A stretch of 31,449 nt of DNA from a virus. Lineage: Duplodnaviria > Heunggongvirae > Uroviricota > Caudoviricetes. The position numbers and the translations under genes were made by a program. Below the pieces are notes generated by a model that saw nothing but the letters and a program-made list of their open reading frames with translations, was not told where the DNA came from and searched no databases. Positions 9,995-24,651 of the stretch are shown piece after piece (positions within the stretch are counted from its first letter, which is position 1; the number at the start of each line of letters is the position of its first letter). The stretch lies in IMG/VR virus record IMGVR_UViG_2541047798_000008. One strand, written 5' to 3'.

Positions 9995-11956
9995 TCATGC
10001 CGCGATGTCCGCGTTGTTCACTTCCACCTTCACACTGTCAATCAGCAGCGTATATGTCGCCGCCTTTGATATGCCTGTCAGTTGCAGTTTGTCCGCCGCC
10101 CCTGATGCCGGAGATTTCACCAGTGTGAACGGCGTCCCCCGTTTCTCATCCAGTACCGGCGTCACCTGAATGCTGTTGTTTCCGGCAAACTCAAAAGCCA
10201 GTGTGTGCCATCCGTTATCAAAGACCCCGAACGTTTCCAGCTTCGCATTCGGCTTCTTGTGGTGCATCGCGTTCAGGTTCGTCGCATCCGTCTGCAGAAA
10301 GAAGGACATCAGCATGTCGTTGCCTTCCTCTGCCAGCGTCACTCCCTCCGGCAGGGACGACAACTGCCAGTAAATGCCCAGGGCAAACTGATTCGGCACC
10401 AGTGAACCCGGCAACTTAAACCGTACGCTCACACGTCCCCCCTTCTTCAGTAACTCCACTCCCTGTCCGGCTGCATCATGCTCCAGAAACCAGATGTGGT
10501 TTTCCGGTTTATTCAGTTGCAGGGCCTTACCTCCCGTAGCCCCCGCATCACTGACCACCGCTTCAGCAATGTTTTTGTTAACATTGTCTCCGCTCGCCGG
10601 TTTGTGATAATAGCGCCAGCCCTGTGATGCCAGGTCTTCGCCGGACGCCAGCAGACTCATCAGGGTTCGGTTACTGACCGGGGCTTCCGGCTCTCTCTCC
10701 GTACCTTCACCGGAAGGTCCGGTGGGCTTCACCGTATCAGGCTGTTTTCCGGTAATGAATTCAGCGTTTCTCCCGGCATGCACAAGAATCGCCGTTGCCA
10801 GACGGTCGGAAATAATCCCACGACGTGCCCATGATCCAAAATGCGTTTTACGGTCGGCCGTCGTCCAGGTTTTGGCGTCCGTTCGACCACCGGCTCCGTA
10901 ATACCCAATATCCGCAACATCCGGATCTTCTGACGGCTCGTTGGTACCCACATTTCGCCCGTTTTCATCCGTCATAAACGGCACAAAGAAGATTTTTTTT
11001 GCGGATTTCGTCTTGTATGCACCATACACCGCATCGTATTGCGAAGAATAAGTCTGCTTCCAGTAGTAGGTCGTGTCGCCACAAATCCAGGGAACCGATG
11101 ACGGAGAGCCCCCGAGACACTGACCTCCGAATTCCGACAGGTCAGAACGATATTTTTCCACCATGGAATCAAACAGCCCCGGCTGAGTGGCGTATGCACC
11201 CTGTTTCAAATCAAACTCGCCCTGCATCCAGACCACTGCAAGCAGAATATTTTTAGGGTTGGCCTTCAGTGCGGCCTGAGTACGGGTAAGCAGGTCCTTG
11301 TACAGTGGCTTATCTACACCCCAGCGTGCCGAGGTCTCGCTTGCGCCGGTGGATTCGCTGAAGGTACCTTCATCGCCCGCCAAAAATGCAGAACCACCAC
11401 GGCAGCACGGAACCAGAAGAATACCGGCATTCGCCGGAATAAACGGCAACAATTTCTTCGCGATATGTAATCCCTGCCCCACGCATCCATACTGAGCTGC
11501 GCTGGCTTTCGGGTGTGAAAACTTACTCAAATCCTGAACATCATGCAGGCAGTGGTCCGCAGGAATAATGTCATTGTAGTTACAGGACGCACCACCCGGC
11601 GTGACAGTGCTGCGACGCGCCAGCTGTTTAATACGCGGGTCCGGACGGTCATATGTCTCCGGCAGCGGAAGCCCTTCACCATACGCCATACCGTTTGACT
11701 GCCCGGCCAGGGCAACAACAAAGTAATACTCCGGGTTGCTGGTGGTGCTGATAACTGCGCCTTCTCCATCCGACGGCTTCACCACCACAGGTGTGGTGAC
11801 ATCACCTTCCGCCGCAATGGCCTGCATCAGGGTATAAGGCGTGATGGCCACCGGACTGCCAAATGGCTGCCACCCCTCCTTCAGTTTTTGTGTCAGTCGT
11901 TTCGCAAGGTCTGACGGCGATGCCGCCCTGACCACGTCATAGTGTTTAAATGCCAT
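9995..11956 (-). CDS. nanS-p: Prophage sialate O-acetylesterase (NanS-p type; DUF1737 N-terminus plus SGNH/SASA esterase domain), 653 aa
   Basis: ATG 11954-11956 with GGGAGGA upstream. N-terminus MAFKHYDVVRAASPSDLAKRL is DUF1737-like; GQSNM-type esterase motif (ALAGQSNG). Sits where Stx phages carry nanS-p, downstream of the tRNAs. Confidence 0.8.
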   Translation of the reverse strand: MAFKHYDVVRAASPSDLAKRLTQKLKEGWQPFGSPVAITPYTLMQAIAAEGDVTTPVVVKPSDGEGAVISTTSNPEYYFVVALAGQSNGMAYGEGLPLPETYDRPDPRIKQLARRSTVTPGGASCNYNDIIPADHCLHDVQDLSKFSHPKASAAQYGCVGQGLHIAKKLLPFIPANAGILLVPCCRGGSAFLAGDEGTFSESTGASETSARWGVDKPLYKDLLTRTQAALKANPKNILLAVVWMQGEFDLKQGAYATQPGLFDSMVEKYRSDLSEFGGQCLGGSPSSVPWICGDTTYYWKQTYSSQYDAVYGAYKTKSAKKIFFVPFMTDENGRNVGTNEPSEDPDVADIGYYGAGGRTDAKTWTTADRKTHFGSWARRGIISDRLATAILVHAGRNAEFITGKQPDTVKPTGPSGEGTEREPEAPVSNRTLMSLLASGEDLASQGWRYYHKPASGDNVNKNIAEAVVSDAGATGGKALQLNKPENHIWFLEHDAAGQGVELLKKGGRVSVRFKLPGSLVPNQFALGIYWQLSSLPEGVTLAEEGNDMLMSFFLQTDATNLNAMHHKKPNAKLETFGVFDNGWHTLAFEFAGNNSIQVTPVLDEKRGTPFTLVKSPASGAADKLQLTGISKAATYTLLIDSVKVEVNNADIAA

Positions 11957-12449
11957 GAATCCTCCCGGCCGGGATAATATTGTGAGTAAAATAAGGAGCG
12001 GGCTGAAGTCCGGAAGTTACAGGACAATGGCAGAAGAGAGACGACAGCCCGCAATTCGAAAAAGACCGCGCAGTTGCGCAGCCTTATGAATTCTGGTTAA
12101 AATCCATTCGATTATAAAAATGTATATCTCATGCTGTTGCCCGAACCCACTCGGGCTTTTTTTTGCCCACAAGAAAGCCCCTCCGGAGAGGGGCTAAAGC
12201 CGCGTATCTGTATCATCATGCACATGATGCCGGGTGCCTCCCGGTGAGTTCAGTATCAGCACCTGAACCCGCACAGAAAGGATAAGGGTCGGTGACAAAA
12301 CACCAGTTGCTGATTGCCCCTCCGCACAGGGGGATTCACCATGCCAGTTTCTTTTAACAAACTCCCCGCAAAACAGACAACTGTCAACCGTCTGAATTGT
12401 GAGACATTTAAAAAAAAGGCCCGCAAAAGCGAGCCGGGAAAAATAAGTC

Positions 12450-12526
12450 TGGCGCGTTGTACTGGATTCGAACCAGTGACCGATTGCTTAGAAGGCAATT
12501 GCTCTGTCCGGCTGAGCTAACAACGC
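12450..12526 (-). tRNA. argO: tRNA-Arg (anticodon UCU)
   Basis: Reverse complement folds as a tRNA (GCGTTGT acceptor arm, anticodon loop CUUCUAA, TTCGAATCC T-loop, CCA end). Confidence 0.85.
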
Positions 12527-12539
12527 ATGATGCAGATAA

Positions 12540-12616
12540 TGGACCGCCATCGGGGACTTGAACCCCGCGCAGCCAGCTTCGAAGGCTGGCGCTCTTTCCT
12601 GATGAGCTAATGGCGG
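12540..12616 (-). tRNA. argN: tRNA-Arg (anticodon UCG)
   Basis: Reverse complement gives a cloverleaf with anticodon loop CUUCGAA and T-arm GGGGTTCAAGTCCCC. The exact 5' end is uncertain by 1 nt. Confidence 0.75.
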
Positions 12617-12623
12617 TATGTGA

Positions 12624-12699
12624 TGGTGGCCCTTGCTGGATTTGAACCAGCGACCTGGCGATTATGAGTCGCTCGCTCTCACCACTGAGCTAAAAGGCC
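12624..12699 (-). tRNA. ileZ: tRNA with CAU anticodon, ileX/ileZ-like (tRNA-Ile2; Met not excluded)
   Basis: Reverse complement GGCCTTTTAGCTCAGTGGTGAGAGCGAGCGACTCATAATCGC...GGGCCACCA closely resembles E. coli ileX. Confidence 0.8.
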
Positions 12700-12725
12700 G
12701 GGCCGAAAATAATAATCAGATGAAA

Positions 12726-13439
12726 TCAAAAATCAAGCCCTTGCATAGATACATATCTGTCTGGCGGGAAGCCATAATAGCGGTGAAATACAGAGATAAA
12801 GTAGGATCTACTTGAATAACCGCATTTTGCTGCTACAGCCTGTCCATATCCATGCCGGGAACATAACATATTTACAGCAACCCGCATCCGTTCCTCAAGT
12901 AACAAATTACTGAACCTGAGACCTTCATCCTTGAGTTTTTTCTTTAACAAGCTCTCACTCATATGCAACTGTAGAGCAATCGCACCAAGCGTCCAGCTTG
13001 CTGATATATCTGTTTGAATTATCGCTCTGACTTTGGCACTTATACTGGATACACATCCACTTAAAAATAATGACATCCGTTCATCTGATTCAAACAGCGA
13101 CAGGCAGGCCATCATAAGAAACATATCCGTGGTCTCTCCGGAAAGTCTCTGACTGGTAATTAAAGCCACAGTCAACGCAGGATTGTTGGGTTCCAGCAAC
13201 AAGTAAAGCGGAATGTCAGTCAGAGGACCTCTCGTCAGCTTATGCTGGCTTTCCAGATATTGACTTACTATAGAATGGCTTATATCGACAATTTTAACTT
13301 TGCCATAATGCATAAGGAAAAGCTCCCTGATGCATTTGGTGGCCAGAACGACTGAGCCGGGCTTAAGTGACAATGTATCCTTTTCAAGAAAAATATTAAT
13401 TGGGGAACAAACCATGATAACTGAACAGATAGCAGTCAT
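12726..13439 (-). CDS. AraC-family transcriptional regulator (237 aa), AT-rich moron
   Basis: C-terminal AraC-type double HTH (WTLGAIALQLHMSESLLKKKLKDEGLRFSNLLLEERMRVAVNML...CGYSSRSYFISVFHRYYGFPP). ATG 13437-13439 without a strong SD. Confidence 0.75.
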   Translation of the reverse strand: MTAICSVIMVCSPINIFLEKDTLSLKPGSVVLATKCIRELFLMHYGKVKIVDISHSIVSQYLESQHKLTRGPLTDIPLYLLLEPNNPALTVALITSQRLSGETTDMFLMMACLSLFESDERMSLFLSGCVSSISAKVRAIIQTDISASWTLGAIALQLHMSESLLKKKLKDEGLRFSNLLLEERMRVAVNMLCSRHGYGQAVAAKCGYSSRSYFISVFHRYYGFPPDRYVSMQGLDF

Positions 13440-13999: not shown

Positions 14000-14821
14000 C
14001 TATCTGGTCACCTTTTTCAGTTGTTGTTCTGCCCATGCTTCTTCAATATCAAACTGCACCACCAGCGTATCGTAAAAACGTTTAACTGTTTTTTTCCATG
14101 TATCAAGAGATATGGCATCGGTTACATTACATATGGCATTAAATGCCTCCGTTGAAGGTAATCTTTCATAGCCACGCCCACCACAACGCTGACAGTTTCT
14201 GAAAACCGGCACACCCTGTTTTTCAGACTCTTCACGATGAATGGCAACACCGCGCCCACGACAATCTTTACAGGCAGTGGATACCTCTCCCTTCCCTCCA
14301 CAGTCCGGACAGGCAACTTTGACCACCTCCCTGACTTTTTTCCATTCCTCCCAGTAAGACGGATACACGCCTTTCGTACACTTTGCCCATACCGGCGGCT
14401 TACCATCCGGATACTGGACCTTGTTTGTAAAAACTATGCTTTCAATAAATTTTTCCCCATAGCAACAAGGGCACTGCTTTTTACTCGCTGCGCTGCGGGC
14501 ATAATCCTCAAAAGCGTACGAAGCCATAATGCGCATCACTACCGGTTTTATTTCTGCCGGAAGTTTTCTCAACGCCGCCACACGATCGCACCGACTGAGT
14601 GCATAATCTGCCAGTAATTCTGTTGCCCGCGCCCTGTCATTCATACTGATGCCCATTTTCCCCAGGAACGCAGAAAAACCCATCTCAGCCCGATTCTGTG
14701 TCATGCCCTGCGCGGCCATCACATCAGTGATACTCAGCGCATCTTTTGACGTTGAGGCCGATGCATCGGTCAGACCAGGGGATTTTGGGGAGTAGTATTT
14801 CGGTAAATCTTCCAGTTTCAT
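14000..14821 (-). CDS. Q: Late-gene antiterminator Q (QuuQ-type, zinc-ribbon), 273 aa
   Basis: LPKYYSPKSP, ITDVMAAQGM, RSAASK and CxxC...CxxC blocks match Qin QuuQ as recalled. ATG 14819-14821 overlaps the rusA stop (ATGA). Confidence 0.8.
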   Translation of the reverse strand: MKLEDLPKYYSPKSPGLTDASASTSKDALSITDVMAAQGMTQNRAEMGFSAFLGKMGISMNDRARATELLADYALSRCDRVAALRKLPAEIKPVVMRIMASYAFEDYARSAASKKQCPCCYGEKFIESIVFTNKVQYPDGKPPVWAKCTKGVYPSYWEEWKKVREVVKVACPDCGGKGEVSTACKDCRGRGVAIHREESEKQGVPVFRNCQRCGGRGYERLPSTEAFNAICNVTDAISLDTWKKTVKRFYDTLVVQFDIEEAWAEQQLKKVTR

Positions 14822-15192
14822 TTTTTGACCTGCTCTTCATGCATTATGGGGTAAATCTTCACCCCCAGACGTCCACCAGATACTGGCTGACCACGAACGA
14901 TATTGATTTCATCAAACTGCTCATCGTCCATTAACACTCCCGCATGCGTCAGCGCATCCAGCGGTGCTTTCAGGATATTGTCCAGGTCGCGACGACGCTT
15001 ATCCGGTGGCTCTGCAATCACCTTTATCGCCAGCCTTCCGGACAGGCTTAATTTCAGCCGCTGCTGGCGAACAATAAGCGCCACATCACGGCGATAACGC
15101 TCACCGACTTTTGATACAAAATATGTGCTGCCACGGCGTCGCCAGTAAGTGTTCACCGTCGGCGGGTAAGGTAAAACCAAATCTATGAGCAT
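14818..15192 (-). CDS. rusA: Holliday junction resolvase RusA
   Basis: PPTVNTYWRRRG...RRRDLDN...AL...G...DD RusA motifs; 124 aa. Confidence 0.85.
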   Translation of the reverse strand: MLIDLVLPYPPTVNTYWRRRGSTYFVSKVGERYRRDVALIVRQQRLKLSLSGRLAIKVIAEPPDKRRRDLDNILKAPLDALTHAGVLMDDEQFDEINIVRGQPVSGGRLGVKIYPIMHEEQVKK

Positions 15193-15204: not shown

Positions 15205-16254
15205 TTACCCAAGCACGCCAGTTGCAAAGGCGTGATCAAGAAAACGAAAAATTAAATCAACCTGAGAACCATGCTTTTCTTCGAACGCCAGCGGATCCGC
15301 ATGAAGATCGTTGTGATGCTCCCGACACAGCGGTAGCGTGAAAATATCGTGAGATTTTGTCCCCATTCCGCCCTGACCATGACCAATCAGGTGATGGGGA
15401 TCGTCGGCTGGCTTACCACAACACGCACACGGCTGTGTCTTCACCCAGCGAGTGTATTTCTCGTTAACCCAGCGGCGACGTTTAGGTCGTTTCATGAAAG
15501 ATTCCGGAGACTCAGGATCAACGGCAATGCTGACCACCGTCTTTTCCTGTGGTGGGTTCTGTTGCTGGTGGGCGTGAGGCAGCGGCGCAATATTTTTTGT
15601 GCGCTGTTTCAGTATGCTGGTGGCGGTCTGCTCTCCCGGTACGATGTCGCTTTCACGGTACATTGAGCGGATTTTTTCCGCACGCAACCCCAGCGAACGA
15701 CGTAATACCACTTCCGGTAGCGCGTCCGCCACCTGATTGCGGACCGCCCACCAGGATAATTCAGCCAGCGATAATTCCCGTTCCTGCGAGCCATTCATTG
15801 CATGGCGTATGACGTCAATCATCCATGCAGACAGGTTTTGGTGAGCAAGTTGCCCGAGTGATTCGGAGGTCTGGTCGCGCAGCTGGTTATCGCAGTGCCA
15901 GCACAACACCATTGCGCCGGTACCATAACGGTGAATGACGGTTTCACTGTGGTGATAATCGCCGTGTGGCCACTGGCAGGATTTAACATGGCGCAGTAAC
16001 CAGTCAGACAATGCGCCAGCACCACCAGCAGCACGAATCACTCGTTCGTCGCTGAAAAATGGCAGTAATGATTTATCCTCCGCCAGCGGCTGGCGAACGG
16101 CAGGAACGACCCCGGACGGCAGATTACGCATGCTTTTCGGTTCCGGCTCCACCAGTACCCGGGTATTGTGGAATACCGGCATGGATTCACGGCCCGGCTT
16201 AACGATCACCAGCCCGAGTTCCGGTACCAGAACAGGTCGAAGTAATACCCGCAC
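15205..16254 (-). CDS. ydfU: DUF968 nin-region protein (YdfU-like), 349 aa, GTG start
   Basis: Length and position (between a small upstream gene and rusA) match Qin ydfU. Zinc-finger/HNH-like CACCGKPADDPHHL...CREHH near the C-terminus. GTG at 16252-16254. Confidence 0.6.
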   Translation of the reverse strand: MRVLLRPVLVPELGLVIVKPGRESMPVFHNTRVLVEPEPKSMRNLPSGVVPAVRQPLAEDKSLLPFFSDERVIRAAGGAGALSDWLLRHVKSCQWPHGDYHHSETVIHRYGTGAMVLCWHCDNQLRDQTSESLGQLAHQNLSAWMIDVIRHAMNGSQERELSLAELSWWAVRNQVADALPEVVLRRSLGLRAEKIRSMYRESDIVPGEQTATSILKQRTKNIAPLPHAHQQQNPPQEKTVVSIAVDPESPESFMKRPKRRRWVNEKYTRWVKTQPCACCGKPADDPHHLIGHGQGGMGTKSHDIFTLPLCREHHNDLHADPLAFEEKHGSQVDLIFRFLDHAFATGVLG

Positions 16255-16701: not shown

Positions 16702-16857
16702 TTACTCCTCAGGTTCGTAAGCTGTGAAGACAGCGACCTCCGTCTGGCCGGTTCGGATTCGTACCTCGCAGAGGTCTTTCCTCGTTACCAGTGCCGTCAC
16801 TATGACGGTTAAACAGATGACGATCAGGGCGATTAGCATCGCCTTTTGCTGCTTCAT
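16702..16857 (-). CDS. hokD: Hok-family type I toxin (HokD/RelF-like), 51 aa
   Basis: MKQQKAMLIALIVICLTVIVTALVTRKDLCEVRIRTGQTEVAVFTAYEPEE is a Hok-family sequence. ATG 16855-16857. No relBE genes are present upstream. Confidence 0.85.
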   Translation of the reverse strand: MKQQKAMLIALIVICLTVIVTALVTRKDLCEVRIRTGQTEVAVFTAYEPEE

Positions 16858-17399
16858 AGCCTGCTTCTCCTTGCCTTTCGGCACGTAAGAGGCTAACCTA
16901 CGTTTGTGAAGCATAGATTGGGCCTCAGATTAATGTTAAACGTCTTGCAGGACGCGTAATGTTAACTGGGGCTTTTCTCTATCTGCCGTTGGTGTTCATG
17001 CCCGAGGCAGATAGCCTCAAGCACCCGCAGCAATTCTACTTAACTCACGTCACCTCGCCAATATAAAATCAATCAGAGAGGTGATTCATAAGAACGATAA
17101 CAAGACAATAAATTGCCATTACTGCCGCAATAGCCAGCGCACATTTCAGAACCAGCACGATGACCTCCCATATTTGACGTACACGCGCATGGTTCAATAT
17201 GTAGCAACCTATTTCTTGCTTCAATATAAAATCAGGTATTGTTGTATAACTATTTAACTAATTCCCTATCCCCACATCTCAGGCGCTCAACGTCTGTGTT
17301 CGGGGCGTTTTTTAATACCTTACCCCCAGCGGCAAATCGAATACACCACCAGCGCCACCGCCATCGCAATTCCTACCGTTGTTAATGCTTCAGGCCTGG

Positions 17400-17740: not shown

Positions 17741-17926
17741 TTATGCCGTAGCCCCTTCTTGATATTTTTCAAACCAGAACACAACCGGCTCTGCTTCCAG
17801 CGATGCCAGCGCAATCCGCGCCAGTTCTTCCGCTTCTTCTGCTGGCAGTACCACGTTGCTATCAGGTCCGTATGTTTCGCGCCACTGCTTGATTGTCAGT
17901 AGTCGCTCTTTGGTAATAGTGATCAT
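17741..17926 (-). CDS. Hypothetical small protein (61 aa)
   Basis: ATG 17924-17926 overlaps the upstream stop (ATGA); AAGGA upstream. Confidence 0.5.
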
Positions 17927-18438
17927 GCCGCGTTTCCTTCTTTCTTATTAACAATTACACCGTCATATATTTCATTAAGGTGCCCTCTCAACTCCATGCG
18001 CCTTAATGCAGATAACATGTAATCGCATTCAACCTGCTTATTTCCAGTAAATGGCTTATCGTCAGGATTACCCCAACAGCAATTACCCTTGGGCCACCCA
18101 TGCACTTTCCGTACTCTTCCGTTAACAACGTGAAGTAATCCCCAGCCAGGTGGTAAATCCTCAATTGAAATAATTCCCGGCTCACTAATAAAGAATCGCC
18201 AGTCGCCCATTCCAAGAGACGGATTTTTACGAAAACGCTTTTTTCTATCTGCCAACAAGTCAGCACGAGAACACTTCGCCTCTATCAGGCATGATGCTGA
18301 ATTTCTGAATCCCATAGCATCTGGCTGTTCTCCGGTACTGGTTACAGCTATAAAGCGGTCATGAAAACAAACCTTGAACCCGTTGCGCTTAAGGAACTTG
18401 TACGCAATCTGACAGAGTTCGCGGTGTGTTAACGCCAT
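17923..18438 (-). CDS. Putative PD-(D/E)xK-fold nuclease-like protein (171 aa)
   Basis: ATG 18436-18438 with AAGGAG 7 nt upstream (track start is TTG). EQPDAMGF...(14 aa)...LIEAKCS resembles the PD...(D/E)xK motif; NCCWGNPDD cysteine cluster. Confidence 0.45.
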   Translation of the reverse strand: MALTHRELCQIAYKFLKRNGFKVCFHDRFIAVTSTGEQPDAMGFRNSASCLIEAKCSRADLLADRKKRFRKNPSLGMGDWRFFISEPGIISIEDLPPGWGLLHVVNGRVRKVHGWPKGNCCWGNPDDKPFTGNKQVECDYMLSALRRMELRGHLNEIYDGVIVNKKEGNAA

Positions 18439-18439
18439 A

Positions 18440-18799
18440 TCACTCTCCTTTGATGCCAATGTTTACAGCCTGGCAAGCCTCTTTGAGCACCCAGTCAACA
18501 GCGTCTTTCCATGCTCCGGTTTCGACTGGCGGGTTCTCACGTTTTACCTGTTCATAAAAGCGCACGGCTTTAACCAGTCCTTCTGATGTCACCGGAACTG
18601 GCGGGGCCGTGAATAACGCCTGAATTTCATAGTTTGGTCTGTCGTTACAATCCTCTTTTGTCGGGACATATTTCCAGTCACCAACCCACTGCTTCCCCTG
18701 AAAGTCTGTAACGCCTTTTTTCACGTAGCGATATCGCCATGCCACTGGTTTTGCCTGCCCTACCTTTTCATGCCCTTCCTGATAATTAATCTCGCTCAT
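18440..18799 (-). CDS. Hypothetical nin-region protein (119 aa)
   Basis: ATG 18797-18799, overlapping the upstream stop. Confidence 0.5.
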   Translation of the reverse strand: MSEINYQEGHEKVGQAKPVAWRYRYVKKGVTDFQGKQWVGDWKYVPTKEDCNDRPNYEIQALFTAPPVPVTSEGLVKAVRFYEQVKRENPPVETGAWKDAVDWVLKEACQAVNIGIKGE

Positions 18800-18972
18800 T
18801 CATCGCCCCACTCATCACAATATGCTTCGACCGGTGTTTTCCCTGCTTCATAATCATCACGCCATGCTTCAGCATCAGCGGCACTTCCACCGCGTAACTC
18901 TGCATAATCCATTAACAGTTCATGCCATTCTTCAAAACTGGCGTTATATTTAGTTGAACCAAAATCAGCCAT
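18796..18972 (-). CDS. Hypothetical small protein (58 aa; MADFGSTKYNASFEEWHELLMDYAELRGG...)
   Basis: ATG 18970-18972, 3 nt after the preceding stop; its TGA overlaps the next ATG. Below the track cut-off. Confidence 0.4.
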   Translation of the reverse strand: MADFGSTKYNASFEEWHELLMDYAELRGGSAADAEAWRDDYEAGKTPVEAYCDEWGDE

Positions 18973-19147
18973 TTTGCTCTTCCTCTTCGTCTTTTATTTC
19001 GTGATATGAGTAATTGCAGTAGTTAAAGAAAATATCTTTTGCTTCGTCATGTATTTCATCAGGCGTCGCATCATCATCCACTTCGAATTCATCCTCGAAA
19101 TCTCCACCGGCTATTCCCGTTTCAATAATTATTTTAAACTTTCGCAT
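18965..19147 (-). CDS. Highly acidic small protein (60 aa, about one third Asp/Glu)
   Basis: ATG 19145-19147. Sequence MRKFKIIIETGIAGGDFEDEFEVDDDATPDEIHDEAKDIFFNYCNYSYHEIKDEEEEQNG. Confidence 0.5.
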   Translation of the reverse strand: MRKFKIIIETGIAGGDFEDEFEVDDDATPDEIHDEAKDIFFNYCNYSYHEIKDEEEEQNG

Positions 19148-19240
19148 TTAACTACCGCCCTTTCGGGCGGCCTCCTGATGTTCTGAGGGTGCAGAAATCC
19201 CTCCGGTTAAGGATTAAATTTTTAACAGAGCTAAATTTAA

Positions 19241-19597
19241 TTATTCAGTTCTGGATTTTGTCGCCCTGCGTATCCGCGCTTTCGCGTTACGCTCAATCTG
19301 AATTAGCTTTTCTATATTTTTTCGCCTTTCCCGCTCCTCCTGACGCAAGAGCCTTACATCATCTGCCAGTCTGGTTTCTCTTTTCGCCACAGAGAGCATC
19401 CAGTCAAATGGATCCACAACTGCACCGCAGATTTTACAGCGGACCTGACGCTCTTTTTCGTCAACCCGGACAGAGGCGTGATGACAATATGGTCTTTCCG
19501 ATGGCTCATAAAGAAAATTAACCTGATTACGAGGGTCATCCTCTTTTACCGGAAATAAAACGATATTGCTTAACTCATCCTCTGGTTTTATTTCCAT
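19241..19597 (-). CDS. Hypothetical protein with a zinc-ribbon-like motif (118 aa)
   Basis: ATG 19595-19597 with AAGGAGAGGAG upstream; C-H-H...CKIC motif. Confidence 0.5.
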   Translation of the reverse strand: MEIKPEDELSNIVLFPVKEDDPRNQVNFLYEPSERPYCHHASVRVDEKERQVRCKICGAVVDPFDWMLSVAKRETRLADDVRLLRQEERERRKNIEKLIQIERNAKARIRRATKSRTE

Positions 19598-20036
19598 GCT
19601 CCTCTCCTTTGATGCGAATGCCAGCGACGCGTAATGCGTGTTCTAAGTCAATCAGGTAAAGCCAACTGCCATTTTCTTTAGGTATCATGACATGTCGCTC
19701 ATCTGCATTTATCGGGTGTCCATATCGAAGGTCGTAGCGAGTCGGTAATTGAACTTCCCGCGCTTCCAGTTCAGCAATACGCTTGCTCCCATCAGAGATA
19801 ACGCCTTCGTAATACTCACGCTGCTCGTTGAGTTGTGATTTTGCTTCTTCCAGTCCATCCAGCAAATCAGCGATAATATCCGCTTCCCGATGACGGATGT
19901 GACGCTTAAACGCAGCAAGAGCCGCATCACAATCCCGTTCAGCATTTGGGCTGTCCGGGATAGCCTGATACCACGCCAGCGTCGACTGATAGTTTTGTGC
20001 TGCCTCACGAAGCGCCTCATAGTTAACCTCTCTCAT
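19575..20036 (-). CDS. Hypothetical phage protein (153 aa)
   Basis: ATG 20034-20036 with AGGAGGTG upstream; overlaps the upstream stop (ATGA). Confidence 0.55.
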   Translation of the reverse strand: MREVNYEALREAAQNYQSTLAWYQAIPDSPNAERDCDAALAAFKRHIRHREADIIADLLDGLEEAKSQLNEQREYYEGVISDGSKRIAELEAREVQLPTRYDLRYGHPINADERHVMIPKENGSWLYLIDLEHALRVAGIRIKGEEHGNKTRG

Positions 20037-20329
20037 TGAGCCACCTCCTGATAAATCACCGCATGCCCCAGTTTCTCCGCCAGTGCCAGCTCTGCCTTAG
20101 CGCCCGCTGACCGCTGCCAGCCATTCAGCATGTAAATCGCATCCACACAACGAATCATTGCCATGCAAATATCCATGTAGTGCGGCTGTGTCAGCCCGTC
20201 CGGAAGTACTGCCGGGTTTAAGACGGTATGCCCTTCCCGTTTCAGTTCCTCTTCCACCTTGTGAAATGCCTCACGGTTGAAATTTTCATATCCCGTCATT
20301 GGACCGGCGATATAAATCCTCACCCTCAC
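20033..20329 (-). CDS. DUF4406-like protein (nucleoside 2-deoxyribosyltransferase-like fold), 98 aa, GTG start
   Basis: N-terminal IYIAGPMTG motif typical of this family; GTG 20327-20329 with AGGAGGG upstream (alternative ATG at 20299). Confidence 0.5.
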   Translation of the reverse strand: MRVRIYIAGPMTGYENFNREAFHKVEEELKREGHTVLNPAVLPDGLTQPHYMDICMAMIRCVDAIYMLNGWQRSAGAKAELALAEKLGHAVIYQEVAQ

Positions 20330-20639: not shown

Positions 20640-21356
20640 TCACCGCTGCTGCTCTCTGGTGGCGGTAATATCCCGGAGAATATCCCTGTGTTTGTTCAGT
20701 TCCCGCAGCGCAGCACAGACTCGCTCCCACTTCTGGACATCACTTTTCGCCCGGCGCAGCTCGCGGTTAGCCACATGCAGCGATGGTAGAATCAGGTCAT
20801 CTGCTTTCATTTCGGTGATCGATGGCTGTAACCTCACAATGTCTTCCACGATTTCTGTTTTCATTTCTTCCTGTGCCATCATTTCCTGTACTGGTAACGC
20901 AACACCTGCTGGCTGAGGAAAGGCTTTACCATCGGTTTCCGCTACGGATGCAGCTTCCGGCTCTGCCGGTAAATCAGCGCCCGGTATGCAGTAACGAAAT
21001 TTACCACCCTGATTCACGCGAATCAGACGCCCTTTGCTGATTGCCATGGCCAGCGATGAATTCGCCCGGCGGGAGGTAATCCCGAACATCAGTGCCAGCT
21101 CATCCGCCGTTTGTGGGCCATGTTGTTCAATCGCCTCAGTCAGCATTTGCGCTGTCACTTTCGGTACCGGTGACACTGATTCACTTTCACCAGCCTGAAT
21201 CAGCCACCACATCGAACCCTTGTTATCCGCTTCACCGCGGCGCTTCAGTTTCCACAGTTCGTCGACCGCATCTTCACGGCTGATTCCAAGGCGGGCCGCC
21301 ACTACCTGTGAAGAGGCTCTTTTCAGTGCTTTCAGTGCGTCAAATACGGTTTCCAT
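20640..21356 (-). CDS. Hypothetical protein with tandem winged-helix-like domains (238 aa)
   Basis: ATG 21354-21356 with GGAGGAA upstream (track start is TTG). Confidence 0.5.
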
Positions 21357-21389
21357 TAATATTTCCTCCGACAAAATCGTTTCTCAGAT

Positions 21390-22052
21390 TCAAATAAAAC
21401 CAGCTGCCTTCCGGCGTTCGTATTCCTGTTTCAGCCGTTCAATTGGCGTTGGCCCTTGCGGGTGTTTCGCCCCTTCCAGTTGTCGTCGCACTGGCGGAAC
21501 ACTCATCCCGTTACCAACATGCTTTGCCCATTTCGTCAGTTGCCGTTCCGCAAGTCGTTTTAACTCACCCTGCGTCATCTGGCGCTCAATCCCTCTGGTA
21601 CGCATTTCGAGGCAGATGTGGTACAGCACAGGCTGTGGCCACGGGTATTTATCACTCCCGTCGTATCGCCAGGATTCATTGCGCCAGCGCCGGTACTCTT
21701 CCATCACTGCATCCACCGTAAGACCAAATGGATTTGCCCCACTCTCCGAAATCAGTGCAACAAACTCAGCCAGGTCCGGGGGCCACGTTTCACCCGCCCG
21801 GCAGCGGTCCATGCACTGACGGCAGACCAGCCGGATTTGCTGTTCAGTCATCGCGCCAATCTGGGCAATCCAGAGCTTCGAAGGTGCGGCCCCGTTCTTC
21901 TGTGTCCAGCGGTTCGAATACGCCTCCCCCATAAGCTCCCACAGCTTCCAGGCCGTTTCCGTTGCTGATAAATCCGTTGTCACGTTCCCACTGTTCGCGT
22001 GCTGCCCGGATTTCCTGAACTGCCCGTGATGCCGTGCCACCTGATGCTGCAT
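21390..22052 (-). CDS. P: Replication protein P-like (helicase loader), 220 aa; start uncertain
   Basis: C-terminal region resembles lambda P as recalled (YPW...LTD/GELKR..AE...). ATG 22050-22052 has AAGGGGG upstream but overlaps the O-like gene by 208 nt; alternative starts at 21932 and 21851. Confidence 0.55.
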   Translation of the reverse strand: MQHQVARHHGQFRKSGQHANSGNVTTDLSATETAWKLWELMGEAYSNRWTQKNGAAPSKLWIAQIGAMTEQQIRLVCRQCMDRCRAGETWPPDLAEFVALISESGANPFGLTVDAVMEEYRRWRNESWRYDGSDKYPWPQPVLYHICLEMRTRGIERQMTQGELKRLAERQLTKWAKHVGNGMSVPPVRRQLEGAKHPQGPTPIERLKQEYERRKAAGFI

Positions 22053-22881
22053 GGCTTACCCCCTTGCTGACTGGTTTTACCTGTGCCCTGACGTGCTGCA
22101 CGTGGCGGGCAAATTTCTGCTCCCACTGAACCTGCGTGAAAACCTTCCCCTCCGCCATCCAGTAATCCCGGAATGCGGCAAGCTCTGCAGGTGTAAATTC
22201 CGGCTCAGGCAGAGCCATACCCCACACTGCTGCCCGTTGTCGAAAATCCGACGACGGCTGCCAGACAGTAGTCATCGAAAATTTCCCGATCGGTTCGCTC
22301 AGGCCGTCCAGGTATTCAGGTTCGGCTGTCTGCAACGGCGCACCATGCGACTCACCGGTTGGAGCACTCTCGCGCATACGCGCGTTATGTGTGGGGTTTA
22401 ATTCTGTATCTGTATCTTTATCTGTCGTGACTTGTCGTGACAGATGCGTGACACGTCGTGACTCATCGTGACAATCAGCATCATATTTCCGCAGCTTTTC
22501 GCGCTCCCGCTGCGCTCTCTTGCGCTCTGCCGGGGATTTTGCCGTTTGCGAAACGTTACCATTGTCCTCTTTCAGCACCTGACGTTTTTCCCATCCGGAA
22601 ATAAGGTCACCATCCAGAACCCGCCCCTGCATTGCATGCAAAATTGAATCAATTACGTCTTCCGTCACATCAAGCGCACTTGCTAAATCTTCCGTCGTGA
22701 CATCAATGTGACCACGTAGTGACACGCCGTGACATGTCGTGACATTTCGTGACGCGCTCACCAGAAGGTGGATATACACTGCCATCACTGTTGCGATTGG
22801 CTGTCCTGATACCCTGGCAATTGTTCGCCACTTAGGGTCATTTGGCATGTCATGCCATAATCTGAGCCAGGCGTTAGCCAT
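21844..22881 (-). CDS. O: Replication initiator / replisome organiser (lambda O-like), 345 aa, with internal iterons
   Basis: N-terminus MANAWLRLWHDMPNDPKWRTIA is typical of phage replisome-organiser N-domains. ATG 22879-22881 with AGAGGTGA upstream. Two GTGAC-repeat arrays lie inside the gene. Confidence 0.7.
   Translation of the reverse strand: MANAWLRLWHDMPNDPKWRTIARVSGQPIATVMAVYIHLLVSASRNVTTCHGVSLRGHIDVTTEDLASALDVTEDVIDSILHAMQGRVLDGDLISGWEKRQVLKEDNGNVSQTAKSPAERKRAQREREKLRKYDADCHDESRRVTHLSRQVTTDKDTDTELNPTHNARMRESAPTGESHGAPLQTAEPEYLDGLSEPIGKFSMTTVWQPSSDFRQRAAVWGMALPEPEFTPAELAAFRDYWMAEGKVFTQVQWEQKFARHVQHVRAQVKPVSKGVSHAASGGTASRAVQEIRAAREQWERDNGFISNGNGLEAVGAYGGGVFEPLDTEERGRTFEALDCPDWRDD
22424..22474. 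repeat. ori: Iteron array 1 (5 copies of CGTGAC at 10-11 bp spacing) with an adjacent AT-rich tract; candidate origin
   Basis: CGTGAC at 22426, 22436, 22447, 22457, 22467; AT-rich ggtttaattctgtatctgtatctttatc immediately beside it. Confidence 0.65.
22694..22755. repeat. Iteron array 2 (6 copies of GTGAC at 10-11 bp spacing) in the 5' part of the O-like gene
   Basis: GTGAC at 22697, 22708, 22719, 22729, 22739, 22749. Confidence 0.6.
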
Positions 22882-22952
22882 ACTCACCTCTTCTGATACC
22901 GAATCTTTTTACTCACGAGTTGCCGGAAGCGATTCGATATGGCTATTGTCAG

Positions 22953-23378
22953 TCAATGTACTGCCACAGCATTTCCTGCCGGGCCACCACGGTTCATCTG
23001 ATTGAAACCGGCGATTGCCACTGCGACAAAATCATCAGCGTCTCTCACCAGTCGCTCCCGCGTCTCCACCAGCTCCCGAAAATAAGCGGAACTGTGGCTG
23101 CGCATTCTGGCCACCAGCAAAGGTGGCATTGCCTTTTCGATCGCTGGTAACAACGCCTGAATTTTTTCAACTGCATCAGGGGTGTCTTTCTCTACCCAGC
23201 GGAAAATTTTCTGGGTATTGCGAGCCAGGGCTTCCGGATGGCTGTCGTCATACAGTTCCGGGAACGTCATTCCCAGCTCGAAATAAGTCCGGGCTATTTC
23301 AGCTGCTGGAACTTTCTCACCGTCTGGATACGCCCAGGCATTCATTGCCATGCGGATGTGTTCATGCTTGATTTTCAT
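22953..23378 (-). CDS. YdaT-like protein (141 aa), CII-position gene
   Basis: Follows the Cro-like gene with a 17-nt overlap; size and position as ydaT in Rac. Confidence 0.5.
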   Translation of the reverse strand: MKIKHEHIRMAMNAWAYPDGEKVPAAEIARTYFELGMTFPELYDDSHPEALARNTQKIFRWVEKDTPDAVEKIQALLPAIEKAMPPLLVARMRSHSSAYFRELVETRERLVRDADDFVAVAIAGFNQMNRGGPAGNAVAVH

Positions 23379-23634
23379 GAATCAGCTCCGGTGCATTTGA
23401 TGTGTTAACCTTGAATCCAACAGGTAAACCGTCGGTTGGGTTAGGATAAATATCAGGGCGAATTTCATGCGGGGTAACTTCCCACTTCATTAGCTGACAT
23501 AACGGAATTACCTGCTTTGGGGGAACGTCAAAGCTAAACCATTGCCAAACAGTCTGTTGAGCGACCCCCATATAACGACCTATTTCAGCTTGAGTGTATT
23601 TCTGCCTAATTTTTTCGCGAGTGCTATCTAGCAT
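23362..23634 (-). CDS. Cro/YdaS-like HTH regulator (90 aa)
   Basis: HTH AEIGRYMGVAQQTVWQW; ATG 23632-23634 with GAGGAG upstream; divergent from the repressor gene. Confidence 0.65.
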   Translation of the reverse strand: MLDSTREKIRQKYTQAEIGRYMGVAQQTVWQWFSFDVPPKQVIPLCQLMKWEVTPHEIRPDIYPNPTDGLPVGFKVNTSNAPELIHENQA

Positions 23635-23743: not shown

Positions 23744-24145
23744 ATGATGAACGCCCTAGAAGTATCTATGTACAGAATCAGCAAGCTTCTTCAGGAAACT
23801 GGATGGAGCCAGGCTGAGCTTGCCCGTAGAATTGGTGTGACACAACAAACTGTTCAACAATGGGTCAGCGGTAAGGCTACACCTAAAGCCTCAAGTTTGG
23901 ATAAACTGGTTGAGGTTACAGGGCATCCATTGCATTGGTTTTTATTGCCTCCTGAAGAGGGGGAGCAAATTTTCACCCCTGACACGATGAAAATTGGTCC
24001 TCGTCAACGCGAACTGCTCCAGGCTTTTAGTGCGTTTCCAGAGGAAGACCAAGAAAAAATGCTTCAAGAAATCAAAGACAAGAAAAAATCAATGGAAGAA
24101 ACCATTGCCCGGTGGTTGGCGGCACAAAAAAGCCGCCGGGCGTGA
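23744..24145 (+). CDS. HTH (XRE-family) repressor, DicA/RacR/PaaR-like (133 aa)
   Basis: HTH LLQETGWSQAELARRIGVTQQTVQQWVSG; divergent from the cro-like gene; followed 27 nt later by the antitoxin-toxin pair. Confidence 0.75.
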   Translation: MMNALEVSMYRISKLLQETGWSQAELARRIGVTQQTVQQWVSGKATPKASSLDKLVEVTGHPLHWFLLPPEEGEQIFTPDTMKIGPRQRELLQAFSAFPEEDQEKMLQEIKDKKKSMEETIARWLAAQKSRRA

Positions 24146-24172: not shown

Positions 24173-24364
24173 ATGAGTACAGCCCTTTCTCCGATAGTTT
24201 CAGAATTCGAAACTACCGAACAAGAAAACAGTTACAACGAATGGTTACGCGCTAAAGTGGCGTCAAGCCTTGCAGACCCTCGTCCCTCAATTCCACATGA
24301 TGAGGTAATGGCTGAAATGGAGAATCTTATTGCTCAAATTGCTGTAACTAACAGGAGCGAGTAA
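24173..24364 (+). CDS. Antitoxin of a ParE-type TA pair (PaaA-like), 63 aa
   Basis: ATG 24173 with GAGGAG upstream; stop overlaps the toxin start (TAATG). Size and context fit PaaA-type antitoxins. Confidence 0.65.
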   Translation: MSTALSPIVSEFETTEQENSYNEWLRAKVASSLADPRPSIPHDEVMAEMENLIAQIAVTNRSE

Positions 24365-24651
24365 TGTTACCCATTTTGTGGCTACCATCTGCTCGCGATG
24401 ATTTGCGTCAGATCGTAGCCTATATTGCTAAGGAAAATATTCCTGCAGCACGCAGACTAAAAATACGGATTGAAACGTCTGTTTTAGCCCTCTCTGAGCA
24501 TCCATATCTATATCCGCCAAGTGATCGAGTATCCGGTTTGCGGGAAATTGTGGTTCACCCTAATTATATCGTTTTGTACCGAGTAGCAACTTCAAGCATT
24601 GAAATTGCAAATATTGTGCATGCCCGCCGACAATTTCCCTTCCCTATCTGA
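24364..24651 (+). CDS. parE: ParE/RelE-family toxin (95 aa)
   Basis: LWLPSARDDLRQIVAYIAKENIPAARRL...GLREIVVHPNYIVLYRV...IEIANIVHARRQFP are typical ParE motifs. Confidence 0.8.
   Translation: MLPILWLPSARDDLRQIVAYIAKENIPAARRLKIRIETSVLALSEHPYLYPPSDRVSGLREIVVHPNYIVLYRVATSSIEIANIVHARRQFPFPI

Follow-up and report, generated by a model that had tools for sequence, protein, structure and literature searches.

DUF7167, a short and strongly acidic phage protein in an Escherichia coli lambdoid prophage, as a possible decoy of a host nucleic-acid-binding protein

The o60 gene and its product

The sequence analysed here is the 31,449-nucleotide virus record IMGVR_UViG_2541047798_000008 (Caudoviricetes). 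We call this whole stretch the window, and it is an Escherichia coli lambdoid prophage. Our subject is o60, a gene that encodes a 60-aa protein of the DUF7167 family; the positions of this gene and of the other features are collected in Table 1. A preliminary description of this DNA gave no strand for the gene, which is on the minus strand, and placed it in the early or nin region. The placement is correct, with o60 lying between O/P and RusA/Q. The reading frame starts with ATG, an in-frame TAA stands directly before it, and the protein sequence is MRKFKIIIETGIAGGDFEDEFEVDDDATPDEIHDEAKDIFFNYCNYSYHEIKDEEEEQNG.

The preliminary description also stated that about one third of the residues are Asp or Glu. 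The count agrees (20 of 60, 33%), and both clusters that it named, DFEDEFEVDDD and DEEEEQ, are present in the protein. It had further proposed the isoelectric point (pI) and a predicted structure as checks, and both were run. The computed pI is 4.05, with 5 Lys and Arg residues, a net charge of -15 and a mass of 7.1 kDa, and the structure prediction, described below, is confident. When the 177 open reading frames (ORFs) of at least 50 aa in the window are ranked by acidity, o60 comes first, and with a background of 11.5% acidic residues the binomial probability of 20 or more in 60 is about 7e-6. The GC content of the gene is 37% compared with 49% for the window, as is expected of a mobile accessory gene.

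The protein matches the Pfam family DUF7167 (PF23768) with 55.1 bits against a cut-off of 24.4 (E=7.9e-15), residues 2-53 covering the whole profile (1-60 of 60). It also matches phrog_1997 with E=9e-31, residues 1-57 on profile positions 1-57 of 57, and this group is placed in the PHROG category 'unknown function'. Length, motif and acidity are all alike with no difference, and by its sequence o60 is an ordinary full-length member of DUF7167/phrog_1997 in every feature tested. At the level of all of Pfam-A, the sole matches with E<=0.1 were DUF7167 and, below its threshold, AnkX_ins; a scan against NCBIfam gave no match, and neither did the PADLOC defence-system models for o60 or nine of its neighbours.

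Compared with a 93%-identical allele in E. coli GB089, o60 has 10 synonymous and 3 non-synonymous changes, giving a ratio of non-synonymous to synonymous polymorphism (pN/pS) of 0.06. It is a genuine gene under strong purifying selection. The gene is carried by 1871 of 5426 complete E. coli genomes (about 34%), where the RefSeq name is 'DUF7167 family protein', and a few copies in decayed prophages have internal stops. A gene that benefits the phage rather than the lysogen would be expected to be lost in this way as a prophage decays. The same internal stops would also suit a non-functional o60, either a chance ORF or a decaying remnant; however, this explanation is refuted for practical purposes by the pN/pS value, the 236 relatives, the confident fold and the conserved leader. 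Two of the degraded copies, in a Qin-like prophage of E. coli SOI121 (L094, 3001-3183) and in Shigella flexneri (L085, 5001-5183), carry the same K37-to-stop change, and they are annotated as, or resemble, pseudogenes.

Acidity and conserved positions of the family

When 1.84 billion representative proteins were searched exhaustively with the family profile, 236 relatives came up at E<=1e-3. Nearly all of them stand alone at a length of 50-60 aa, and they come from phages or prophages. The carriers are temperate and virulent phages of Enterobacteria, Klebsiella, Pseudomonas, Enterococcus, Lactococcus and Streptomyces, so that the host phyla comprise Proteobacteria, Firmicutes and Actinobacteria. 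Plasmid copies are rare (15 records, from E. coli and Klebsiella only), and a scan of genome contigs gave only 3 loci. Among 103 short representatives, the median net charge is -11, the median pI is 4.1 and 27% of the residues are Asp or Glu; the single representative above pI 6 is a frameshift fragment.

The family motif can be written M-R-K-F-K-V-x-I-E-T ... F-E-V-[ED]-D-D-A-T-x-E-E-I ... N-x-C-N-Y-G-Y-x-E. The members are too divergent for pattern scanning, and column conservation was taken from a 111-sequence family alignment. Columns 4, 6, 8, 21, 23, 32, 36, 40, 44, 46 and 48 form the hydrophobic core, each being 92-100% hydrophobic. Acidic residues occupy column 22 (E22) in 93% of the sequences, D24 in 75%, D25 in 94% and D26 in 78%, and on the helix they make up 69-86% at positions 29-31, about 72% at positions 33-34 and 86% at position 38. 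Conserved basic residues are limited to positions 2, 3, 5 and 37. The C-terminal tail varies in length across the family, and its columns are 40-60% acidic. There are occasional fusions, to YopX, to a Cys-rich domain and to a Zn-ribbon with a long acidic tail, and two natural tandem duplications (P0130 and P0144), which hint at a dimeric function.

The exact peptide FEVEDDAT was also seen near the C-terminus of unrelated viral proteins of about 720 aa (L103, L104, L107 and about 20 other IMG/VR loci; for example L104, 7927-10101). In these proteins it precedes a basic, not an acidic, helix (EFEVEDDATKAQIKKAF). Judged by sequence, the peptide is a recurring element of a strand and a helix cap and no marker of DUF7167.

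Predicted structure

AlphaFold2 was run with a 46-sequence alignment, and the resulting model of the o60 protein has a mean predicted local distance difference test score (pLDDT) of 88 and a predicted template modelling score (pTM) of 0.62. It consists of strands at residues 2-8 and 17-23, a helix at 29-43 with pLDDT above 90, an extended segment at about 44-51, and an acidic tail of low confidence, which is predicted to be flexible. The protein is predicted to be a compact folded domain with a floppy acidic tail. Residues I32, A36 and F40 mark the buried face of the helix. From the secondary structure and the periodicity of the conserved columns, the acidic positions would come together in one dense patch, and in the model this patch is the obvious candidate for an interface. 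For the tandem duplicate P0144, a single-sequence AlphaFold2 run gave a moderate model (pLDDT 71, pTM 0.65) that adds little.

No solved structure of the DUF7167 family was found in a sequence search of the PDB, and a Foldseek search of the PDB with the model found no similar solved fold (best E 0.35). Known DNA mimics and anti-defence proteins (Ocr, ArdA, Arn, Ugi, p56, AcrIIA4, Gam, gp5.9 and DinI) were not among the matches at any meaningful score of fold likeness. The matches in BFVD are uncharacterised members of the same family only, from Escherichia phage phAPEC8 (E=7.7e-4, TM-score 0.76), Streptomyces phage Paedore and Lactococcus phage 949. The PDB matches obtained with the single sequence and with the 46-sequence profile were rejected as noise: the formyltransferases had E>0.1, and the ribosomal protein uL23 had E of about 0.05 through a common strand-helix motif.

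The patch might be mainly structural, and the acidity might have nothing to do with mimicry but serve divalent-cation binding, the solubility of a small adaptor or a role that cannot be guessed from sequence. DDAT resembles a helix N-cap, and K3 and K5 could pair with E22 and E20 across the hairpin. The signature appears partly structural as well, because the FEVEDDAT strand-helix motif recurs in the unrelated proteins of about 720 aa and resembles a segment of uL23. On the other hand, about ten conserved acidic positions are more than would be required for capping and two salt bridges, the tail is acidic too, and a net charge of about -11 is kept in very divergent members. We consider this explanation unlikely.

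The leader upstream of o60

An AGGAGG strongly resembling a Shine-Dalgarno sequence lies 23 nt upstream of the o60 ATG, and between the two is a hairpin, GCCGCCC-GAAA-GGGCGGU, that is seen in both the minimum free energy fold and the centroid fold. The leader is identical in three upstream contexts, namely the window, the Shiga toxin (Stx) phage ArgO145 and E. coli GB089, and the sequence identity across the three starts exactly at TCAGGAGG. Since it is identical behind three different upstream genes, the leader travels with the o60 cassette. We also considered the hairpin as a remnant of a deleted DUF7446 gene, and withdrew this idea because the three-context alignment places the hairpin within the o60 cassette. 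Hairpin-bridged ribosome-binding sites have been described for genes 38 and 25 of phage T4. The leader may be a putative site of this bridged, or 'split', kind; alternatively, the hairpin may mask a weak GGGCGG site. The TAA before the ATG is read as GAA in some alleles, and this explains the N-terminally extended versions of 87-146 aa in the databases.

Position, timing and neighbouring genes

No site resembling a promoter or a terminator was found for o60 itself on the minus strand. From its position, the gene is presumably read within the delayed-early PR transcript. The identical gene of ArgO145 (gp15), like that of other Stx-converting phages, belongs to the PL operon and is several kb into it, within the 'ea' region from int to exo; this too is a delayed-early position.

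In E. coli, o58 follows o60 in 79 of 80 IMG/VR loci and o118 usually precedes it. All 80 loci are 100%-identical E. coli copies, and o58 or o118 as a conserved partner gene was rejected, the o60-o58 and o118-o60 linkage reflecting near-identical E. coli prophages only. A BLAST search with the neighbours found no relatives of o58 or o118 beside distant homologues of o60. Likewise, no family recurred when 99 co-directional neighbours, drawn from 31 distinct contexts, were classified with Pfam, and no adjacent partner of the kind expected of a two-gene antitoxin or immunity module was found. The neighbours of distant homologues share themes rather than families, being concerned with replication, recombination and nucleotide metabolism: DUF551, Ea22-like proteins, SNF2 helicases, DUF2800/PDDEXK nucleases, AAA_24, DUF669, DNA polymerase A, primase, thymidylate kinase and RNA ligase. 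In Klebsiella Guernseyvirinae the DUF7167 gene overlaps the start of a gene for a 454-aa exonuclease, which is followed by a Gp2.5-like single-stranded DNA-binding protein (SSB)/annealase, and the overlap in Enterococcus Kochikohdavirus is with the end of an exonuclease gene. Such adjacency is seen in only about 3 of the 31 contexts.

These neighbourhoods bear on whether the partner of the o60 protein is made by the phage itself. The protein could be an accessory subunit, chaperone or regulator of a phage protein, for instance the acidic partner of a basic phage DNA-binding protein, with o118, a replication or recombination protein, or a nuclease needing to be kept inactive as candidates. The gene does lie consistently within replication/recombination modules, the basic o118 protein (pI 8.9) is encoded upstream in most E. 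coli copies, and the fusions to YopX, the Cys-rich domain and the Zn-ribbon point the same way. However, no neighbour is conserved beyond the E. coli lineage, and the cassette, leader included, follows a different upstream gene in each of three contexts. The replication systems of the carriers are unrelated (lambda O/P, primase-helicase with PolA, SNF2), so no phage target is common to them. A phage-encoded partner is in our judgement improbable. The lack of a conserved neighbour gene argues instead for a target encoded elsewhere, by the host. The unrelated replication systems argue for a host-encoded target that is broadly conserved, and the spread of the family over phages of distant hosts also points to a broadly conserved target.

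Some further observations concern the E. coli neighbours themselves. The ATG of o58 overlaps the stop codon of o60 by 8 nt. The o58 protein (58 aa, MADFGSTKYNASFEEWHELL...) is the second most acidic of the window ORFs, with pI 4.05 and net charge -12. Its PHROG match is to the C-terminal part of phrog_519 ('unknown function'), while Pfam and the PDB gave no match. It belongs to an independent family of 198 phage records, mostly Salmonella and Klebsiella phages of about 157 kb that have no DUF7167 match, and o58 and o60 are joined only in the E. coli lambdoid lineage. The o118 protein has a CxxC...CxxC zinc-ribbon with a weak match to the TFIIB Zn_Ribbon, followed by a very basic C-terminal helix rich in Arg, Lys and Glu, and it matches phrog_1621 ('unknown function'). 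In other strains, its place is taken by a DUF7446 protein or a class I S-adenosylmethionine (SAM) methyltransferase. Two genes downstream of o60 is a basic 178-aa protein (pI 9.1) with strong matches to PHROG groups of 'unknown function' and a weak match to a 'DNA repair protein' group; its D...EAK motif could be a putative PD-(D/E)xK nuclease mark.

A proposed decoy of a host nucleic-acid-binding protein

The reading we favour, with a probability of roughly 40%, is that the o60 protein acts on its own as an electrostatic decoy of a conserved nucleic-acid-binding protein of the host. It would be a delayed-early phage accessory protein with a domain of about 50 residues, made of a beta-hairpin, an amphipathic helix and a third strand, followed by the floppy acidic tail. 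One end of the domain would display about ten conserved Asp/Glu residues (E22, D24-D26, 29-31, 33-34 and 38). The protein, possibly as a dimer, would bind the basic nucleic-acid-binding surface of the host protein and block it. The target could be RNA polymerase, a nucleoid protein, an enzyme of restriction or of another defence, or a nuclease (RecBCD/AddAB, for example), and the outcome would be that phage DNA replication and recombination are helped once early transcription is running. Binding to a host protein, the acidic patch as the interface and the choice of target are all three things that we infer. What the analysis does show is a real early gene whose product is acidic throughout the family, confidently predicted to fold, free of a partner gene and present in phages of many hosts, and whose place is always among co-directional genes for early functions, replication, recombination or nucleotide metabolism. 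A high surface density of Asp and Glu, which is a general feature of DNA mimics, is found here in that the o60 protein is 33% acidic, the family has a median net charge of -11 and the acidic columns of the loop and the exposed helix face are conserved at 70-94%.

Several points limit the decoy reading. High acidity alone is weak evidence, and all that can be taken from the comparison with Ocr is a charge density of suitable magnitude. Neither sequence nor fold searches linked the protein to known DNA-mimic or anti-restriction families, and a literature search for DUF7167, PF23768, phrog_1997, DUF7446 and the peptide motifs found no mention of them in the papers searched. The o60 family is also missing from the supplementary data of a machine-learning study that predicted anti-defence proteins.

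One sub-case of the decoy reading is an inhibitor like lambda Gam or T7 gp5.9, acting on a host end-processing nuclease (RecBCD in Proteobacteria, AddAB in Firmicutes), which would protect linear replication and recombination intermediates and free the phage recombinase. In lambda, gam adjoins bet-exo, and in T7 gene 5.9 adjoins gene 6; the exonuclease overlap in Klebsiella Guernseyvirinae (with the Gp2.5-like SSB/annealase next in line) is of this kind. The Enterococcus Kochikohdavirus gene overlaps an exonuclease gene as well, and other neighbours include the DUF2800/PDDEXK nucleases, AAA_24 and DUF669 recombination genes. Like Gam and gp5.9, the o60 protein is small, acidic and delayed-early, and in some phages the DUF7167 gene is beside exonuclease/annealase genes. 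The timing fits Gam, no Pfam Gam was detected in the PL operon of the window prophage, and Gram-negative and Gram-positive hosts would share this conserved target. However, nuclease adjacency is confined to a minority of the contexts, and in the Stx phages the gene is kilobases away from the exo/recT genes. Gam and gp5.9 are helical coiled-coil dimers, and the o60 protein resembles Gam, gp5.9 and Abc2 in neither sequence nor fold. We regard this specific target as quite unlikely.

A second sub-case is the one proposed in the preliminary description, which had suggested a DNA mimic with an anti-restriction or anti-defence role. As a generic acidic decoy this is plausible; the anti-restriction part is a guess, and the delayed-early position speaks against it. 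The protein would in that case act as Ocr and ArdA do, occupying the DNA groove of Type I restriction-modification (R-M) enzymes and alleviating restriction. Ocr has 34 acidic residues out of 116 (PMC3439906). The o60 protein resembles Ocr and ArdA in its extreme negative charge density (33% acidic, against 29% in Ocr), in being small and phage-encoded and possibly in being a dimer. Type I R-M is widespread, which matches the broad host range of the family, and in one E. coli context o60 is directly downstream of an orphan SAM-dependent methyltransferase gene. In contrast, the 116-aa Ocr forms an elongated dimer, helical throughout, in the shape of a bent DNA duplex; the o60 protein is predicted to be an alpha/beta knob of 50 residues. 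No Pfam match to Ocr, ArdA, ArdB/KlcA or Ral was obtained at E<=0.1, there is no fold match, and 60 aa is far too small for the footprint of Ocr, about 24 bp, unless the protein is multimeric. Ocr is immediate-early and expressed first from a promoter-proximal place, whereas o60 is downstream of cro, O and P in the window or deep in the PL operon, a position that would be late for shielding incoming DNA from a Type I enzyme. As weak evidence, the family is also missing from the supplementary files of two papers on one accessory-gene screening platform that recovered Ocr, Ral and ArdA. Taken on these points, direct relief of Type I restriction is very unlikely.

Two other small inhibitors are relevant for comparison with the decoy reading. 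Like PBS2 Ugi, p56 of phage phi29 is a uracil-DNA-glycosylase inhibitor. It is also small, acidic and early; it has about 56 aa, with a small beta-sheet and a helix, and is a dimeric DNA mimic. T7 Gp2, an inhibitor of E. coli RNA polymerase, has about 60 aa and a negatively charged strip that occupies the DNA-binding channel. Its strand/helix order is similar, and there is a superficial local likeness (KKF...FEV...); kinship with Gp2 was rejected, because hhalign gave a probability of 0.08% for the family profile against a Gp2 sequence.

Other features of the window

Besides the replication and regulatory genes listed in Table 1, a PaaA2-ParE type II toxin-antitoxin pair lies directly downstream of the cI-like repressor, with DicB and DUF1482 farther along the PL operon. 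At the RecE position is an 824-aa protein whose C-terminal domain matches the Rv2179c-like 3'-5' exoribonuclease family, and no gene for a RecT-like annealase is present between it and the integrase. An AraC-family regulator is found downstream of Q, where Stx phages carry stx; it is followed by three tRNA genes and a nanS-p-like esterase, and no toxin genes were seen downstream of Q at 9995-13439. At the other end of the window are two tandem terminase modules. The gpA of the first is truncated within its nuclease domain, and that of the second runs past the window edge. Direct repeats of 90-96% identity, about 3.2-3.6 kb apart, occur in and around these modules. The tandem terminases and the repeats suggest that a segment was duplicated, or that the late regions of two prophages were joined here.

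Table 1. Features of the 31,449-nt window, in order of position
Feature	Position	Strand	Basis
Two tandem terminase modules	1-5617	minus	
Second terminase module, gpA	1-1986	minus	
Second terminase module, Nu1	1901-2512	minus	
First terminase module, gpA (513 aa)	3652-5193	minus	
First terminase module, Nu1	5108-5617	minus	
Direct repeat pair	486-785/3693-3992		
Direct repeat pair	2595-2665/5772-5842		
Direct repeat pair	3533-3698/7094-7259		
nanS-p-like esterase (DUF1737+SASA+DUF6645)	9995-11956	minus	
tRNA-Met, tRNA-Arg(tcg), tRNA-Arg(tct)	12450-12699		
AraC-family regulator	12726-13439	minus	
Q antiterminator	14000-14821	minus	
RusA	14818-15192	minus	
DUF968	15205-16254	minus	
Hok	16702-16914	minus	
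Further small ORFs	down to 17400	minus	
Basic 178-aa protein	17923-18459	minus	
o58, second acidic ORF	18796-18972	minus	
o60, coding sequence of 60-aa DUF7167 protein (stop codon 18965-18967)	18965-19147	minus	ORF list, Pfam, PHROG, pN/pS, RefSeq name
o60 acidic C-terminal tail, codons 52-60 (KDEEEEQNG)	18968-18994	minus	mean pLDDT 64 over last 10 residues
o60 conserved acidic patch, codons 22-38 (EVDDDATPDEIHDEAKD): end of strand 2, loop, exposed helix face	19034-19084	minus	alignment and model
o60 leader, with AGUUAA before AUG	19148-19176	minus	three-context alignment and RNA fold
Leader hairpin, 7 bp with GAAA loop	19154-19171	minus	
Leader AGGAGG	19171-19176	minus	
o118, Zn-ribbon and basic coiled coil	19241-19597	minus	
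Ea22-like	19575-20036	minus	
DUF4406	20033-20329	minus	
DUF1627	20640-21374	minus	
P	21390-22052	minus	
DnaT-like O	21844-22887	minus	
YdaT-like	22953-23378	minus	
cro/YdaS	23362-23634	minus	
cI-like repressor	23744-24145	plus	
PaaA2-ParE pair	24173-24651	plus	
DicB	26186-26374	plus	
DUF1482	26371-26559	plus	
824-aa protein at RecE position	26655-29129	plus	
Integrase	29391-30416	plus	
tRNA-Ser(cga)	30469-30558		

Significance

The verified facts are already in the databases: o60 is an ordinary copy of a catalogued, uncharacterised domain, and a small acidic early ORF will not surprise a specialist. If the protein were an accessory factor internal to the phage, the result would be of specialist interest only. 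If instead it inhibits a conserved host nuclease or defence enzyme, DUF7167 would be a new minimal fold among DNA mimics and a widespread counter-defence gene. The strongest form of this idea, which we hold as doubtful, is that DUF7167 is a new minimal class of nucleic-acid mimic of about 55 aa, a beta-beta-alpha-beta knob with a ten-residue acidic patch, with which temperate and virulent phages of Gram-negative and Gram-positive bacteria alike may switch off one conserved host DNA-processing or defence enzyme, such as RecBCD/AddAB or a restriction or abortive-infection nuclease. Because it is abundant (also in Stx-converting phages), constrained, folded, equipped with an acidic patch, free of a partner gene and present in phages of distant hosts, the family is a cheap, well-defined and unusually clean candidate for screens of anti-defence or host-takeover functions. 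If the new class of mimic were real, an inhibitor of this kind would be present in the prophages of about one third of E. coli genomes.

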